Positions 2,537-60,296 of a DNA stretch of 64,000 nt are shown here, in pieces (the first letter of the stretch is position 1; each line of letters opens with the position of its first letter). The position numbers were made by a program, and so were the translations under genes. The notes below the pieces were generated by a model. The model did not search any database. It was not told the origin of the DNA and saw nothing but the letters and a program-made list of their open reading frames with translations. Source of the stretch: a virus; UHGV virus genome UHGV-0033085; one strand, 5' to 3'.

Positions 2537-2596
2537 GTATTTATTCAACTCCTGATTTTGTCCCCCGTAACACCCCTACGGTCAGCCTTCGGTCCA

Positions 2597-2733
2597 TACA
2601 GGGAAAAGGCTGCATCCCGCTACAGAAACGGCTGGGTTGCCTTCGGGGAACGGCTGGAGGTTTTCAGGGAAACGGTCGAGTTGCCTGTGTGGATTTCGGG
2701 AAAAGGCTCGATGCCGGTTCAGGAACGGCGGCG
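2597..2733 (+). repeat. iteron-like direct repeat array (six copies, consensus TTCAGGGAAACGGCTG)
   Basis: Copies starting about 2599, 2623, 2645, 2665, 2695, 2719; spacing 21-30 bp. Confidence 0.6.
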
Positions 2734-3066
2734 TACCGGTATAGCGTGAGGGAGAGTTTCGGCTACCCACCTGCAATGTGCGGGAAGAAGAGAGGCGCTC
2801 ACGTGCAGGCGGACTAACTTACCGTTGGACTCCCTTTGAATGCCCAACTACAGCGTAATTGTGCCAGAGAGTCAGCGGGTCACAATCGATTTCAGTAGGT
2901 TTTCGGGGAGAGGATTATTCTGCCCACCAGCCACCTTCGGCCACTAAATCAGAATAATGTAAAAAGTGTACTCGGTACTGAACCTGAAAACTCACTGCCA
3001 AAACCACATTCACCGGAATAAAATCCTTTTTCACCTGTGCGTTATTACGATAATAACACCAACAAG

Positions 3067-3081
3067 AAAACATGTTGTTTA
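3067..3081 (+). promoter_or_regulatory. operator palindrome AAAACAtgtTGTTTA downstream of a GATAAT -10
   Basis: Member of the AAGAAAACA-N3-TGTTT family; overlaps the first ATG of the downstream ORF. Confidence 0.45.
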
Positions 3082-3422
3082 AGAATTGCTTTATGTTTGC
3101 AAATATCGACATCAACCAAATCAAGAAATTGACTCAAAAAGAGTTTGACCAGTTCTATGAGCTGGAAGGTTGGTCTTCCACTCTGATTAATTCAAGATGG
3201 GTGCTGGAGCTGATGACTCGTGATGATGCACCTGCTTTGATGATCAGCGACCTGGGTGAAGATGCTGACTTTATGGATATGAGCGAATTTTGTGTGGACA
3301 CATACAACCGCAGCCAGAAGTACTACTTCACATGCGATAGCGAGAACGACGTGATTTCTAAGGTCTATCTTCACCTTGTCCAGCATTGGGACGTTCAGGA
3401 GTTTCTTGAAGTATTCGAGTAA
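3072..3422 (+). CDS. hypothetical acidic protein
   Basis: ORF track; start uncertain (ATG 3072 or 3096). Confidence 0.45.
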   Translation: MLFKNCFMFANIDINQIKKLTQKEFDQFYELEGWSSTLINSRWVLELMTRDDAPALMISDLGEDADFMDMSEFCVDTYNRSQKYYFTCDSENDVISKVYLHLVQHWDVQEFLEVFE

Positions 3423-4014: not shown

Positions 4015-4410
4015 ATGACCGTTAAACGCGAAAAACTGACAGTTGATGTTTACTATGCCTCTGAAACCGCCGAAGGTAAGAATGTGGCAAAAATCACCGT
4101 TGTTACGTACAACACCGAAACTGGTGCCGAAGTCCAGGCCAGTACGATCGTGCGTAAAGGTGATGCCTCCGGCGGCGAGTACGCGACTCAATACCAGTCC
4201 ATTCTCGATGCAACTGACCCGCTGCTGCTGAAAATCGAGAACTACTTCCGCCAGGTTGATGAAGAGGTGTTTGAAACCATGATGAGTATGGTTAATTCCG
4301 TATTCACCTCCAGCCTGAACACCAGCACCACCTGGATTGGCCAGTACGGTCTGCGTATTACCTCCGGCATTCCTGCTGACACCTTAATCCCTGAAAGCGT
4401 ATTCGCTTAA
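4015..4410 (+). CDS. hypothetical protein
   Basis: ORF with ACGGAGAG RBS. Confidence 0.55.
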   Translation: MTVKREKLTVDVYYASETAEGKNVAKITVVTYNTETGAEVQASTIVRKGDASGGEYATQYQSILDATDPLLLKIENYFRQVDEEVFETMMSMVNSVFTSSLNTSTTWIGQYGLRITSGIPADTLIPESVFA

Positions 4411-4419
4411 TCCTCTTTA

Positions 4420-4446
4420 AATGGCGCGTAAACCGCGCCATTTTCT
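4420..4446 (+). terminator. intrinsic terminator
   Basis: AATGGCGCG-taaac-CGCGCCATT hairpin followed by TTTC. Confidence 0.6.
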
Positions 4447-4454
4447 TATGCCCG

Positions 4455-17391: not shown

Positions 17392-17415
17392 TCGGTCTGG
17401 GAGCTTATTTAAAGA

Positions 17416-17470
17416 CCTGCTTCTGTATATATAAATAATAAGTAATTTATTAAATATATACGGAAGCAGG
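17416..17470. repeat. 55-bp AT-rich palindromic element, copy 1
   Basis: CCTGCTTCTGTATATAT...ATATATACGGAAGCAGG; 54 of 55 identical to 49613-49667. Confidence 0.7.
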
Positions 17471-17508
17471 CTTAATAAGACATGCCCAGACCTAATTAAA
17501 CACCCCAG

Positions 17509-49501: not shown

Positions 49502-49612
49502 TATTGCATCTCTTAGCTACTGACTAATGCGTTCTATTTTACACATAAGTTTTTAATCAATTTAACAGGCTCAAAGTGTAGAGCTTCTGGGCGTCTAAGA
49601 CGACAAGTTATG

Positions 49613-49667
49613 CCTGCTTCTGTATATATAAATAATAAGTAACTTATTAAATATATACGGAAGCAGG
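49613..49667. repeat. 55-bp AT-rich palindromic element, copy 2
   Basis: One mismatch to 17416-17470; followed by TCTTTT; in a divergent intergenic region. Confidence 0.7.
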
Positions 49668-49750
49668 TCTTTTAAAAGACACCACCAGAACAACTCCCTT
49701 CCGTTTCCACTTCCAAAAACTGCCACCAGTCGCTATCATCCGCTCATTGT

Positions 49751-56700: not shown

Positions 56701-56722
56701 GATAAGTATTTACTTACTTATC
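56701..56722. promoter_or_regulatory. TAAGTA box, palindrome GATAAGTA-tttact-TACTTATC
   Basis: Perfect 8-bp arms at the start of the non-coding tRNA region. Confidence 0.4.
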
Positions 56723-56896
56723 TTTTGTGTATAAGATGACTTTGTTTTCGTTGAGACGCGACTGTTTGAACTTAAATACAAGTGCAAACGAAGAAGTCTA
56801 TCTGGCAGTAGCCTAATAAGCCAAACACCAGCGAGGTCAGTTTCCAGCCTCGTTACCGAAATGGGACACACTGAGCGAGTGTGATTGCAGAACGCA

Positions 56897-56920
56897 GGAG
56901 GGAACATTCATGTTCCCTCC
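56897..56920. repeat. perfect 24-bp palindrome GGAGGGAACATtcATGTTCCCTCC
   Basis: 11-bp perfect arms; contains SD-like AGGAGG plus ATG in both orientations. Confidence 0.7.
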
Positions 56921-57081
56921 GATGAAGTAACAGAATGGGCGGTTGGTATATTTTCAACTCCATATGACTCCCGGATTCTTAGCCACTGACCGCCCATCCT
57001 GTTACGTCATTTTGTTCAATTATGTCGTTTATACTGGGTTAAAAAGCGGCGACGTAGCCCGGCTGGTATGGTTAGCCAGCA

Positions 57082-57203
57082 CACAACGTTGAGGCCATTA
57101 CATTTTTATCAATTCTAAGGTTCTATTCACAGAGATACCGGCGAGCGTTGATATGTAACATGTTGGGCAAACATTCAATCGGAGTAGTGGCCTCAACGTT
57201 GTG
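57082..57203 (+). repeat. long stem-loop element A (CACAACGTTGAGGCC ... GGCCTCAACGTTGTG)
   Basis: 15-bp perfect inverted repeat around about 92 nt, upstream of tRNA-Asn. Confidence 0.6.
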
Positions 57204-57469
57204 AAGACAGGATTGTTGTGTAGGTTTAACCACTGTTGCCATTGGTGCCTGTTTTCACAACAAATGATTCCATACATCACATTGTATAAATTACAAAGTA
57301 GGTGCTGTCCTCAGAAACATCATCTACTTAAAGATTTTGCCTTCTACTATTGAGCGAAGTCGAAAGCGTCTGGCACTAACGAAAAGTGCAAGTAGCGGTG
57401 CGTTTCCTGGCAGAAACTAAACCGTCGCGATTGGCACTGTTGAGTAATAAATACTGGCAGTGCTGAATT

Positions 57470-57544
57470 GATGGTGTAGCTCAGCGGTAGAGCAGTTGGC
57501 TGTTAACCAACTGGTCGGTGGTTCGAATCCACCCACCATCGCCA
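57470..57544 (+). tRNA. tRNA-Asn (anticodon GTT)
   Basis: Cloverleaf folded by hand: 7-bp acceptor, GCTC/GAGC D-stem, GTTGG/CCAAC anticodon stem, loop CTGTTAA, TTCGAAT T-loop, encoded CCA. Confidence 0.85.
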
Positions 57545-57549
57545 ATTTA

Positions 57550-57636
57550 GGGGAGTTAGTCCGTAGAGGTAGCGGTGTAGACTGTAAATCTACTGTCATG
57601 GCGACTCGGGTGGTTCGACTCCATCACTCCCCACCA
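57550..57636 (+). tRNA. tRNA-Tyr (anticodon GTA), type II
   Basis: Acceptor GGGGAGT/ACTCCCC, anticodon stem GTAGA/TCTAC with loop CTGTAAA, long variable arm, TTCGACT T-loop, encoded CCA. Confidence 0.8.
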
Positions 57637-57640
57637 AATT

Positions 57641-57716
57641 GCCGGTTTAGCTCAGTTGGTAGAGCGCCTGCCTTGTAAGCAGGATGTCAGCGGTTCGAGT
57701 CCGTTAACCGGCACCA
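57641..57716 (+). tRNA. tRNA-Thr (anticodon TGT)
   Basis: Acceptor GCCGGTT/AACCGGC, GCTC/GAGC D-stem, anticodon stem CCTGC/GCAGG with loop CTTGTAA, TTCGAGT T-loop, CCA. Confidence 0.85.
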
Positions 57717-57717
57717 A

Positions 57718-57806
57718 CACAACAGGTAAGTGCATTGGGCGAATCGGCGATACTGACCCACAAGCCCGTAAATCGATAGAGTCAGACCAGTGCTCTTACC
57801 GTTGTG
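57718..57806 (+). repeat. long stem-loop element C (CACAACAGGTAAG ... CTTACCGTTGTG)
   Basis: 12-bp arms around about 64 nt, immediately after tRNA-Thr. Confidence 0.55.
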
Positions 57807-57857
57807 AGGAAGTGCAGCTCTTTGAGGCAACCAGAAGATAAGCATCTGGCTTCACAA

Positions 57858-57936
57858 CACAACGATAAGATCATTACGGTTAATCGTCGTTCATGTGCAC
57901 AATGACTGGTCGAAAGGTAGTGATCTTACCGTTGTG
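57858..57936 (+). repeat. long stem-loop element D (CACAACGATAAGA ... TCTTACCGTTGTG)
   Basis: 13-bp arms with one mismatch around about 53 nt. Confidence 0.55.
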
Positions 57937-58080
57937 GTGGATTCGCAGACTGATGCGATAGCTTTCTTGGATGTTAGGGAAATGCGGCCGCAAATCTTCC
58001 CTTTCGCGAGCGGTGATCGTCCGTAGTCCTAATTGGCTGCACCGTATGCCGGAGATTCAGTACCGGCCACCACAACGGCC

Positions 58081-58167
58081 GGAGAGTAGGGAGCATGGTG
58101 CTCAAGCGGTCTTGAAAACCGTCCCATTGCGCAAGCGATGATGGTTCGATTCCATTACTCTCCGCCA
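58081..58167 (+). tRNA. tRNA-Ser (anticodon TGA), type II
   Basis: Acceptor GGAGAGT/ACTCTCC, anticodon stem GCGGT/ACCGT with loop CTTGAAA, 17-nt variable arm, TTCGATT T-loop, discriminator G, CCA. Confidence 0.8.
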
Positions 58168-58169
58168 GA

Positions 58170-58247
58170 CACAGCGTTGAGCGGTTTGGCCTTTTAATCA
58201 CCCAGATTAAGACTCCGCTAACATAAACCAGACCGCTCAACGCTGTG
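58170..58247 (+). repeat. long stem-loop element B (CACAGCGTTGAGCGGT ... ACCGCTCAACGCTGTG)
   Basis: 16-bp perfect arms around a 46-nt loop, directly after tRNA-Ser. Confidence 0.6.
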
Positions 58248-58389
58248 ATAGACAATTACGGCAGACGTTCTTAACCATAGCTTGCTAACATCCTAGCAAC
58301 ACTTTTTTTCAGCGCAAAATTCAAAGGGGCTTCGGCCACTTTTTTTGCAACTGAAAGAGTCAAGTCTACGAACTTTGTAGGAAGAAATA

Positions 58390-58740
58390 ATGACCAGCAA
58401 AGAGAACACACCACTAAAAGTCACCCCTGAACACATTGAACAACTCATTCAAAGTGAACATTATTTCACTGCATATGATGCCAGCCACGGGGATAACTTC
58501 ATCTCTGTTTACAATTCAAAAACAGATATCGACAAAGGTCATGAGTCGTTAAAACTCTTAACGTTCTGCGTTATGGTTCTCAAAAATGGATATACCGTAA
58601 CGGGAAAATCTGCGTGCGTAAGACCAGAAATCTTCAATTTTGATGTTGGTCGCGAGTACGCTCGAAAAGATGCTATCGATCAAATCTGGCCCCTGGAAGG
58701 CTATCTCCTGAAGCAAAAGTGGCATGAGGCAAAGCAATGA
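58390..58740 (+). CDS. hypothetical phage protein (N4 gp49-like, tentative)
   Basis: ORF with GGAAG RBS; C-terminal ...IWPLEGYLLKQ block. Confidence 0.45.
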   Translation: MTSKENTPLKVTPEHIEQLIQSEHYFTAYDASHGDNFISVYNSKTDIDKGHESLKLLTFCVMVLKNGYTVTGKSACVRPEIFNFDVGREYARKDAIDQIWPLEGYLLKQKWHEAKQ

Positions 58741-59192: not shown

Positions 59193-60296
59193 ATGAAAAA
59201 TAGCTTTGACAGAGCACGCGCTGCGGAGAACACCTCAAAAGAGGCGATTGAGTATCTCGAAAGAGCATCTCAAATGCAGGCCGTTATGATCTCCCAGGTC
59301 AGCAATGACATGAGATTCTCGGACGCATTCATGTTATTCACTCGCTTATCTCTGCTGATAACAAGACGTCGGCCAGAGATCGCTGTTCATTGTATTTTGA
59401 TACATGTTTTGCCGCACATTGCCGATGTAAAAGTAAGTGACATTAATAGGTTCATGGTGAACCAACTGGTCAACCCACTAATACTGGATGGCAAAATTGT
59501 TATGGGCCGCCGCGTTTTCTCTCTGATGAAGCAGTTCCTTAGCTGGTGCGCCTTCCAGGGGATGATAGACGTGTCACCGTTAAACGATATGTCACTTAAC
59601 AAAGTTGCCGGTGGCGCAAAGCCCACACCTCGCGAGCGGAAGCTGACCGACGCAGAGGTATGGGTGTTCTGGAATATATGGGACTACTTCAATGTGTGCG
59701 CTGGTACAAAATGGGCGGCCAGGCTGTGTCTTGTATCCGCAAGACGACCTGACGAAGTACTGCGTGCTAAAAAAAGTGAGTTCAATCTTAAGCGTGGGGT
59801 TTGGAATCAAGGCAAGAGGAACAAATCTGCCCGTGAGCATTCGCTGCCTTTAAGCACATTAATGCGCACATGTATTGAAGAGTTGTTCGAATACGGTAAA
59901 GGCAGCCAGTGGCTCGTGCCTTCGAATAAAAAAATCGGGAAAGACCTTCCTATGTCTAAAGTGGCAATAGCCCAGGCATTACGTCGTATTCTGGAACGAC
60001 CAGAACTGATGGAGCTTGAGCCATTTACACCCCGAGACTTGCGCCGTACTGCGCGTAGTTACTTCCCAGCATTAGACATAAGCCAGGAGGTATCACGCAA
60101 AATCATGAACCACAGTCTTGAGGGGATAGATCGAGTCTACGACCGGCACGATTATATGGACGAGATGCGAGACGCCTTAGAAAGTTTCTCGACGTACATC
60201 GCATCAATCGTAGAGCAACCGGATTTAGACGAAATTGACCACAAATTCAAGGGAGATCGTCTATCAACAGAGCTTATTCGTGTAAATTTTTCATAG
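59193..60296 (+). CDS. tyrosine recombinase / phage integrase
   Basis: Conserved LVSARRPDEV, TPRDLRRTA and VYDRHDYMDE blocks consistent with the R..H-x-x-R..Y catalytic signature. Confidence 0.8.
   Translation: MKNSFDRARAAENTSKEAIEYLERASQMQAVMISQVSNDMRFSDAFMLFTRLSLLITRRRPEIAVHCILIHVLPHIADVKVSDINRFMVNQLVNPLILDGKIVMGRRVFSLMKQFLSWCAFQGMIDVSPLNDMSLNKVAGGAKPTPRERKLTDAEVWVFWNIWDYFNVCAGTKWAARLCLVSARRPDEVLRAKKSEFNLKRGVWNQGKRNKSAREHSLPLSTLMRTCIEELFEYGKGSQWLVPSNKKIGKDLPMSKVAIAQALRRILERPELMELEPFTPRDLRRTARSYFPALDISQEVSRKIMNHSLEGIDRVYDRHDYMDEMRDALESFSTYIASIVEQPDLDEIDHKFKGDRLSTELIRVNFS

Follow-up and report, generated by a model that had tools for sequence, protein, structure and literature searches.

In the early transcript of phage T7 (sites R1-R5) and in the N leader of lambda, the host RNase III cuts hairpins of about 20 bp that punctuate the phage RNA. 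These hairpins separate mRNAs and usually contain internal loops giving single cuts. In T4, the RNA species 1 and 2 are stable RNAs co-transcribed with the T4 tRNAs. In the host operon metY-nusA-infB, an RNase III cut releases a tRNA, according to the title of the report by Regnier and Grunberg-Manago (1989; reference 46 of PMC5371410), the tRNA heading a polycistronic transcript and being freed by a cut in a hairpin just downstream. In the dicBF operon of the K-12 Qin prophage, a 190-nt species of the small RNA (sRNA) DicF, whose 5' end has been located by primer extension, is lost when RNase III is missing (PMC10448788), and the 3' end of the 72-nt DicF is made by RNase III (PMC5069750, citing Faubladier 1990). 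Here, we analysed a 64,000-nucleotide stretch of the virus genome UHGV-0033085, hereafter the window, in which tRNA genes are interleaved with long hairpins closed by CACAAC...GUUGUG helices. We named these hairpins X, and the units that stand immediately 3' of them Y. Our results suggest that the X hairpins are probably RNase III processing punctuation of an early, largely non-coding transcript. RNase III processing helices are known as a kind, and the X family was not found described or curated (it is not in Rfam); in the literature on RNAs of the P1 tRNA region and in RNase III supplement tables, no earlier description of it was found. Like the T7 and lambda sites, the X hairpins have stems of about 20 bp and would punctuate a polycistronic phage RNA, whereas the T7 and lambda sites have no CACAAC/GUUGUG base. 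The metY-nusA-infB hairpin, as far as the title describes it, differs in belonging to a host operon and in standing without a repeated X-Y architecture.

The initial annotation had described four inverted repeats, A, C, D and B. All four are present at the positions given there, far beyond chance, with CACARC...GYTGTG ends, and each folds as a single long hairpin (Table 1). Their arms are 20-23 nt long and 87-95% complementary, and the stems contain 19-22 pairs each. A blind search of the window for stems with 15 or more pairs recovered A, D and B together with an extra long hairpin at 56927-57005, all clustered in 56.9-58.25 kb, hairpin C being missed on account of its bulge. With position matrices of the arms derived from 103 relatives, the four hairpins scored 26-55 bits on the + strand, and the best match elsewhere in the window was 9.6 bits on the + strand and 10.4 bits on the - strand. 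Hairpins C and D were also matched by a covariance model of the family (54.5 bits, E = 1.5e-13, and 38.1 bits, E = 1.1e-8, respectively). Hairpin C begins 1 nt past the CCA of tRNA-Thr; its bulged A, at position 7, is shared with the common lambdoid form. Hairpin B begins 2 nt past the CCA of tRNA-Ser, and this pair of tRNA-Ser and hairpin recurs in dozens of viral contigs.

The X family was found in SSU5-like phage-plasmids, in P1, P7 and D6, in N4-like phages and in many lambdoid prophages of Enterobacterales. A scan of IMG/VR with a degenerate pattern gave 90 loci, many of them SSU5-like with matching tRNA-hairpin pairs, the others being contigs of about 40 kb with no tRNA near. A second scan, for the junction directly 3' of X, gave at least 120 loci. 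From these loci, we assembled a family set of 103 distinct X copies, oriented by the flanking tRNA or the downstream hairpin and not by energy. In this set, at least 88% of the copies are paired at each of stem positions 1-8 and 10-19, about one third have a mismatch at position 9, and the paired share drops to 65% at position 20 and about 53-60% over positions 21-23. The total length varies from 48 to 144 nt and the stem is 19-20 bp regardless of the size of the loop. Several pair types occur at stem positions 8, 10, 13-17 and 19, and the commonest 3' arm is CAGUGCUCUUUCCGUUGUG. An alignment of all X arms with MAFFT misregistered the bulged subfamily, and we used instead pairing counts based on folds and an ungapped alignment of a subfamily of 42 sequences. 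In the latter, 94% of the cells are paired and double changes occur in nine of the 19 pairs, values matched by none of 500 shuffles, and registers slid along the stem are only 34-64% paired. These covariation counts ignore phylogeny. The arms are thus conserved and covarying in relatives, which was one of the checks proposed with the initial annotation.

We also looked at the strand on which X folds. The sense strand is the more stable in 97 of the 103 copies, the stems contain 164 G·U pairs for 18 A·C oppositions, and U·G is found at pair 17 in all four hairpins of the window and in 63% of the family. Taken together, the stability of the sense strand, the excess of G·U and the U·G at pair 17 point to X acting as an RNA structure on the tRNA strand. 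The position of X also follows the tRNAs. In the SSU5-like phages, P1, P7 and D6, X starts between -2 and +2 nt from the CCA of the last tRNA of the run, for instance after tRNA-Thr in P1, P7 and D6 and after tRNA-Ser everywhere. In Klebsiella phages, X follows tRNA-Asn, the CCA overlapping the first CA of CACAAC. X can also stand directly ahead of a tRNA, and it is generally preceded by a helix and then an A, as ...GGCA or ...CCAGCA.

Given that the hairpins are tRNA-sized, stand among tRNAs and, in the case of A, come after a string resembling the 5' half of a tRNA, the initial annotation had considered that they could be decayed tRNA genes, which would then have no function. We hold this to be very improbable. 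By ARAGORN none of A, C, D and B forms a cloverleaf, none matches a tRNA model, and against Rfam they gave no tRNA, tmRNA or other match up to E = 10 beyond noise; moreover, X has its own consensus and compensatory changes over hundreds of phages. The proposal of decay fails for X, which is a conserved family of its own, and stands in part for the Y units, which have acceptor-, D-arm- and T-arm-like parts and can be replaced by tRNAs. Other candidates were rejected as well. Rfam scans of the window and 15 related loci, by gathering threshold and by E-value, returned tRNAs only, ruling out that the hairpins are a curated Rfam family, a ribozyme, GOLLD/ROOL, C4 or DicF (RF00039 had no match in the window or in these 15 loci). 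A bacterial Y RNA (YrlA) was discarded with no TROVE domain in the ten neighbouring proteins and no Rfam match, and a miniature inverted-repeat transposable element with no target-site duplications and with compensatory stem changes that argue for selection on pairing.

A homologue of X stands at an RNase III-dependent site in the Qin prophage of K-12. The dicBF operon contains an X (L222 19174-19257) whose ends are CAUAAC...GUUGUG and whose stem, of about 20 bp, has U·G at pair 17; after this X come, in order, a Y closure, dicF, a second Y-type unit whose closing helix has about 24 bp, and dicB. By the arm matrices it scores 25 bits, which is the top of the 23-kb prophage and close to hairpin B (26 bits), the maximum of 30 shuffles being 16.2. 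If the 190-nt DicF species ends at the DicF terminator, its 5' end would be at L222 19246, which lies within the 3' arm of X at 12 nt from the base of the stem. The RNase III-made end of the 72-nt DicF (19454) would fall in the Y-type closing helix of about 24 bp. We predict that the Qin cut at 813/814 lies within GACCGUGCG joined to CUUCCGGUUGUGG, between the two. The Qin element is thus a homologue of the window hairpins in sequence and structure, followed by a Y-type closure, and differs in that the RNA released is the sRNA DicF and not tRNAs. In the two DicF papers cited (PMC5069750, PMC10448788), the hairpin is neither presented as a member of a family nor tied to phage tRNA regions.

The shape of X is also that of an RNase III substrate. 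The cleft of the enzyme holds about 22 bp, and in vivo it prefers two G-C/C-G pairs flanked by A-U/U-A (PMC6212723). A substrate is a continuous helix of about two turns (20-22 bp), and the 103 members have 19-20 pairs, the mismatch at position 9 being the interruption in about one third of them. At pairs 13-16, the lambdoid consensus reads AGCA, in line with this preference (WSSW), and hairpin C reads A/U-G-C-A. Of the possibilities that the initial annotation had listed, processing elements for the tRNA precursor is the one we favour, on the basis of uniform 19-20 bp stems, covariation, location on the tRNA strand, starts 0-2 nt past the CCA and the Qin homologue at an RNase III-dependent site. 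The copies of the window would themselves be cut by RNase III.

Several points weigh against this reading. Hairpins A, B and D match the WSSW preference only loosely. RNase III dependence has been published for the Qin homologue only, and the Qin ends were placed from RNA sizes (190 and 72 nt) and not from a printed sequence position. With default filters, the covariance model (R1) recovered C, D and the copies of P1, P7 and D6 and not A, B or the Qin copy, whose membership rests on the arm matrices and inspection. With the filters off the model performed less well, probably since long loops outrun the model window, and the arm matrices were used instead. Finally, the low sequence requirement of RNase III leaves the strict conservation of CACAAC/GUUGUG at the base of the stem unaccounted for. 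The double use of GUUGUG, in the X stem and in the Y closure, is a plausible reason for the conservation of these six bp.

Under RNase III processing, the events could be as follows. Transcription of the same strand would pass through the array and X would fold co-transcriptionally. The host RNase III would cut both strands mid-stem, taking out the loop and leaving the upstream tRNA with a trailer of about 10-12 nt, which exonucleases could trim to the CCA. The freed GUUGUG strand would then close the acceptor-like helix of Y, or leave the 5' side of the next tRNA accessible.

We then considered the lambdoid copies. The X-Y of the roughly 40-kb contigs and of E. coli prophages is in sense orientation, in an ORF-poor leader (ORF, open reading frame) directly downstream of a CI-like repressor and a PL-type promoter, with an intrinsic terminator after it. 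Matching leaders, without RNA annotation, were found in mEp460, cdtI, Ayreon and Stx2c phages. This is where nutL or putL lie, and the X-Y junction could be a nut-like or boxA-type antitermination signal, or an anti-Rho device, that would let the polymerase continue over 1.5 kb of untranslated RNA. The common 3' arm contains a boxA-like GCUCUUA/GCUCUUU (UGCUCUUU) with a 5-bp boxB-like hairpin 12-13 nt further, the resemblance and the nut layout being judged in the light of the lambda, P22 and rrn boxA sequences. Nevertheless, the boxA-like string is base-paired within the 20-bp stem and covaries away in A (GGCCUCAACG) and B (CCGCUCAACG), none of the first downstream ORFs matched an N-like protein family, and BLAST at word size 7 against the HK022 immunity region gave only chance matches, so that similarity to HK022 put is absent. 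We consider an antitermination role quite unlikely.

The junction of X and Y has a wide distribution. It was found in Serratia, Citrobacter, Erwinia, Klebsiella, Pantoea, Rahnella, Rouxiella, Kluyvera, Buttiauxella, Kosakonia and other Enterobacterales genomes, and in 472 of 5,426 complete E. coli genomes. Exact matches also occur in metagenome-assembled genomes labelled Planctomycetaceae, Chloroflexia, Acidobacteriota and others (L296, L300, L302, L307, L310 and others), which are most likely mis-binned contigs of enterobacterial phages.

Each Y unit shares the GUUGUG of the preceding X. It continues with RUG-AAU, a small covarying hairpin GCGCA-GGCUGA-UGCGC, a hypervariable middle of 20-110 nt, a hairpin GCCGG-AGAUCAGCA-CCGGC, and CAY-CACAAC. 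Its 3' end is complementary to GUUGUG-RUG, a stretch made up of the six final bases of X and the three initial bases of Y. This closure comprises at least 8 bp in 154 of 162 distinct Y units, and at pair 7, when the end of Y is located by motif alone, we counted 59 G-C, 9 G·U, 13 A-U and a single A·C (Fisher p = 1.4e-8). By these counts, GUUGUG can pair with either of two partners, and selection seems to act on both helices. The layout of Y resembles that of a tRNA: the closing helix is acceptor-like, the hairpins on either side of a variable "anticodon" region are like a D arm and a T arm, and the Y slot can be filled by a real tRNA (loci L046, L022 and L193).

The order of modules in the window is [minihelix]-X_A-Y0 ... 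Asn-Tyr-Thr-X_C-Y1-X_D-Y2-Ser-X_B-terminators. Y1 has a T-arm-like hairpin CCAGA-AGAUAAGCA-UCUGG at 57831-57849 and precedes tRNA-Ser in Klebsiella relatives. In Y2, a variable middle separates a D-arm-like hairpin, UCGCA-GACUGA-UGCGA (57943-57958), from a T-arm-like one, GCCGG-AGAUUCAGUA-CCGGC (58048-58067). Whole X+Y units are gained and lost between relatives: CMS-2020a (L006) is without X_C-Y1, Cyrano is without Tyr and without X_C through Y2, and P1, P7 and D6 have their own X-Y series after tRNA-Thr.

Two other readings were considered. The X hairpins, the Y units or both could be stable small RNAs, such as decoys, regulators or tRNA-shaped scaffolds with a hypervariable "cargo", which processing only releases. 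The conserved scaffold hairpins around the variable middle, the fact that Y units fill the slots of tRNAs and of DicF in arrays, and a base of the X stem more conserved than a general double-stranded RNA nuclease would require are all consistent with it. T4 species 1 and 2 are comparable, by their general description, in being structured non-tRNA RNAs (about 120-140 nt) that lie within a phage tRNA cluster and are released by tRNA-type processing. They differ in that accumulation as stable species is established for the T4 RNAs only. Against stable small RNAs, the loops of X and the middles of Y differ even in orthologous copies, which speaks against a sequence-specific role in trans for these parts, and near-perfect 20-bp hairpins in E. 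coli are expected to be RNase III substrates, not stable species. This possibility is thus unlikely in our view.

The second reading concerns DNA. The exact presence or absence of X+Y is bounded by a 9-nt direct repeat, CAACACAAC (family D9), X-Y modules recur in unrelated phage families, and one relative carries an identical base change at all three partner sites (CAUAAU, AUUGUG, CACAAU). Such features could denote recombination joints, either attC-like, of another site-specific kind or microhomology hot spots, at which tRNA and RNA cassettes would be shuffled, the hairpin forming in single-stranded DNA. With lengths of 71-144 nt and AAC...GTT ends, X is indeed reminiscent of attC sites, which are imperfect palindromes of 57-141 bp with only the ends conserved (..AAC / GTT..) and bound exchangeable units. 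However, the ends of X are ACACAAC / GTTGTGR and those of attC RYYYAAC / GTTRRRY, so that the agreement is limited to AAC and GTT, and the X stems are near-perfect, showing one bulged A at the most. X has neither the core consensus nor the unpaired spacer and extrahelical bases of attC, and it comes with no IntI integrase and no ORF cassettes. The sole recombinase nearby is a generic phage integrase, and there is none near the P1 and lambdoid copies. An RNA agrees better with the strong G·U bias of the transcribed strand and with an orientation that is fixed with respect to the tRNAs, and short direct repeats alone suffice for indels. We give a recombination function of the hairpin little credence. 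The four alternatives and RNase III processing are not mutually exclusive.

Some individual copies of the array deserve mention. In phage D6 (L002), a 48-nt, almost loopless X-like element lies at 4402-4449, downstream of a tRNA-Met/Ile gene, and scores 46.3 bits with the covariance model. In P1 (L004, NC_005856), plp and upl are annotated on the opposite strand at 2575-3144, over the 3' end of tRNA-Thr and an array of three X hairpins (2606-2692, 2832-2925 and 3108-3186) with Y units; P7 has no annotated genes there, and the plp and upl ORFs may be spurious. In the N4-like phage EC1-UPM (L334), about 2 kb without annotated genes (862-2825) contain the tag module described below, an X hairpin (CACAACAGGUAAGGGCAUUG...CAGUGCUCUUUCCAUUGUG) and several T-arm-like GGUUCGA remnants, which suggests a decayed or unannotated tRNA/RNA array. 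In Felixounavirus fjerdesal (L335), a different spacer hairpin of 9 bp (AUCUUUAAG...CUUUAAAGAU, 1627-1661) stands directly upstream of tRNA-Arg, after the tag module, and spacer hairpins beside tRNAs may be more general than the CACAAC family. Finally, a conserved leader piece, UUGGUUGUAACACGGCGUCUGGCACAUGCGUCGUUAGCGGUCUGGUGACGUUAAAGG, is found after P1 trnI, upstream of ban (L004 4112-4170), and opens the PL leader of an E. coli prophage (L101 3268-3325). It contains UCUGGUGACGUU, which resembles the 5' part of DicF, and has a weaker relative in the window, GCGUCUGGCAC...GUAGCGGU, at 57366-57440.

Upstream of the hairpins, we found a conserved module resembling transfer-messenger RNA (tmRNA). 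The tag of E. coli ssrA is ANDENYALAA followed by two stops. At 56784-56819, the window reads GCA AAC GAA GAA GUC UAU CUG GCA GUA GCC UAA UAA, that is, ANEEVYLAVA and a double stop. A helix (56802-56805/56828-56831) encloses the last tag codons and the stops, with further hairpins downstream at 56831-56853 and 56867-56883. Any frame that the tag could share with an ATG is broken by indels of 0, +1 or +2 nt directly ahead of it. ARAGORN with relaxed settings reports the resume consensus and the tag, and no tmRNA with default settings. Rfam tmRNA models match the module below threshold, with 14.9 bits for tmRNA_permuted (threshold 47) and 14.4 bits for beta_tmRNA (17.3 in a wider scan; threshold 84), the best relative of the module reaching 33.7 bits for a threshold of 47. 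BLAST with the lambdoid version gave 773 phage records from many families, and none of the 25 records listed had an RNA annotation there.

The tag always has ten codons, with the pattern AN[DE]xxxL[AM][VA]A, in at least eight phage lineages. We found ANDDVVLMAA in N4-like phages, ANDSEVLMAA and ANDNTFLAVA in Kuttervirus, ANDAQFLAVA in Erwinia Kolesnikvirus, ANEEMYLAVA in lambdoid-like contigs and in Aeromonas phage pIS4-A, and ANDNVFLAVA in Felixounavirus, where the module lies within a tRNA array behind its own TTGACA-17-TATAGT promoter. Conserved residues are encoded with synonymous changes (GCA/GCT, AAC/AAT, CTG/TTG, GTA/GTG, GCC/GCT/GCG). The resume context U(-5) A(-4) is kept in most lineages, and the window has C at -5 and A at -4. 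The range of the module exceeds that of X-Y, since it also includes Felixounavirus and Ackermannviridae phages.

The module shares with tmRNA the resume context, a ten-codon AN[DE]xxx-L-x-x-A tag and double stops enclosed in a helix, and its flanks are partly like the tmRNA segments UUCG..GAyUUUGCG and AAUUCGGcGC. In contrast with tmRNA, it has only about 160 nt and no pseudoknots, and in some phages it has its own promoter. A tRNA-like domain (acceptor stem with G3·U70, T arm, ACCA end) was found neither by eye nor with relaxed ARAGORN, RNAalifold or Rfam. The sequence 5' of a conserved GUUUUCG differs in each lineage, being a promoter in some, so that there is no conserved 5' acceptor strand, and the 3' end of the module is a hairpin and then an A. 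The tag frame bears the signature, at the sequence level, of a translated tmRNA-type tag. In the literature on phage tmRNA-like elements, we found no earlier description of this module.

The features of the array are listed in Table 1. The tRNAs of the initial annotation were called by ARAGORN, which returned exactly these four in the whole window. Rfam placed Asn, Thr and Tyr above the threshold of the tRNA model (RF00005, 29 bits), and tRNA-Ser was just short of that of tRNA-Sec (47 bits), its best match in the clan. This gene carries a tRNA annotation (tRNA-Ser) in phages D6 and Cyrano. The anticodons GTT, GTA, TGT and TGA agree with the statement that none of the four is a stop-codon suppressor, and the string resembling a tRNA 5' half, given as lying near 57040, was located (GCGACGTAGCCCGGCTGGTA).

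Table 1. RNA features of the array in the window, from 5' to 3'. Free energies are those of the predicted folds and z-scores were computed against dinucleotide shuffles.
Feature	Positions	Strand	Evidence
Palindromic box GATAAGTATTTACTTACTTATC, opening the non-coding region	56701-56722	.	Unique in the window even at 3 mismatches
tmRNA-like module	56740-56898	+	Nearly invariant in E. coli, Salmonella and Klebsiella SSU5-like phages
Short covarying hairpin GGAGGGAACAU-UC-AUGUUCCCUCC	56897-56920	+	Inverted repeat I20; compensatory changes in relatives
Long hairpin E, stem of about 25 bp	56922-57010	+	-34.6 kcal/mol, z = -5.1
tRNA-5'-half-like string (57049-57068) and overlapping minihelix GCUGG-UAUGGUUAG-CCAGC-A (57062-57081), adjoining hairpin A	57049-57081	+	Kept in relatives
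X hairpin A, 20-bp stem, 82-nt interior	57082-57203	+	-46.7 kcal/mol, z = -6.7; arm matrices 42 bits
Y0, 14-bp closing helix GUUGUGAAGACAGG/CCUGUUUUCACAAC, reusing GUUGUG of hairpin A	57198-57261	+	Inverted repeat I9; -23.7 kcal/mol
tRNA-Asn (GTT)	57470-57544	+	ARAGORN; Rfam 75.5 bits
tRNA-Tyr (GTA)	57550-57636	+	ARAGORN; Rfam 41.6 bits
tRNA-Thr (TGT)	57641-57716	+	ARAGORN; Rfam 74.9 bits
X hairpin C	57718-57806	+	-31.8 kcal/mol, z = -4.2; arm matrices 55 bits
Y1, short, closed by GUUGUG.../...CACAAC (9 bp)	57801-57858	+	Module map
X hairpin D	57858-57936	+	-30.2 kcal/mol, z = -5.0; arm matrices 43 bits
Y2, tRNA-shaped; closing helix 57929-57940/58067-58078	57929-58078	+	12/12 complementary; inverted repeat I12
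tRNA-Ser (TGA)	58081-58167	+	ARAGORN; best Rfam clan match tRNA-Sec, 46.6 bits
X hairpin B	58170-58247	+	-40.1 kcal/mol, z = -9.7; arm matrices 26 bits
Two terminator-like hairpins, each followed by a U-run (58282-58309 and 58326-58346)	58282-58346	+	Read from the sequence

The 1.65 kb around the array share 98.8% identity with Escherichia phage CMS-2020a and 98% with phage Cyrano, two SSU5-like phage-plasmids of about 108 kb each. Parts of the array also match SSU5-like phages of Klebsiella and Salmonella and, unexpectedly, the tRNA region of P1, P7 and D6. The neighbouring genes are on the + strand as well: a DnaB-like helicase, a primase and an ATP-dependent DNA ligase upstream, and an N4 gp49-like protein, a generic phage integrase and CobT downstream. 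The only family matched by the ORF at 59193-60296 is this generic Phage_integrase. From its place among replication genes of the same strand, the array is taken to belong to an early operon and would be transcribed as one RNA, as part of an early polycistronic transcript. A consensus scan called no sigma-70 promoter in the region, including the box that opens it. Long hairpin E has no CACAAC motif; its stem is kept in all SSU5-like relatives while its loop varies, and it may be another processing site of double-stranded RNA. The pair of terminator-like hairpins closes the RNA array ahead of the next ORF at 58390. Neither was called by a simple terminator scan, and at the second site relatives have a perfect GGGGC-UUCG-GCCCC hairpin with a U-run. 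Elsewhere in the window, the whole-window stem scan detected two near-identical hairpin elements of about 61 nt (CCTGCTTCTGTATATATAAATA...ATTAAATATATACGGAAGCAGG), at 17413-17473 and 49610-49670, 32 kb apart.

The initial annotation had stated that about 1.5 kb of this region is without credible coding sequence. This holds for the ORFs, which are all short and overlap tRNAs or hairpins, and has to be amended for the upstream part, where the tmRNA-like tag frame had been overlooked. Together with RNase III punctuation, we think it probable that 56.7-58.35 kb is largely non-coding and built of interchangeable RNA modules (tRNAs, tRNA-shaped Y units and the tmRNA-like module) with X hairpins between them. 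A wider proposal, which we put forward only tentatively, as a conjecture with the odds against it, is that unrelated Enterobacterales phages, namely SSU5-like, P1-like, lambdoid and N4-like ones, share a mobile "RNA-gene cassette array". Its cassettes would be tRNAs, tRNA-shaped scaffolds with hypervariable inserts, DicF-like sRNAs and a miniature tag template derived from tmRNA. The CACAAC/GUUGUG helices would serve both as RNase III punctuation and as swap joints, and the tag template, despite having no tRNA-like domain, would still be used during infection, adding AN[DE]xxxL[AM][VA]A tags or disturbing the trans-translation of the host.

The tag module lifts the significance of the region beyond the hairpins that were first noticed, and a tag frame present in hundreds of phage genomes raises the question of whether phages reprogram or block ribosome rescue. 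If the X hairpins are RNase III punctuation, this would explain how tRNAs and small RNAs can reside within long untranslated stretches of early operons in temperate and some virulent enterobacterial phages, and how they are released from there. It would also flag probable mis-annotations, such as P1 plp and upl and the "hypothetical proteins" placed over these RNAs, and add a family that is absent from Rfam. Finally, it would link 35-year-old observations on DicF processing to an element conserved in P1, P7, D6 and N4-like phages.

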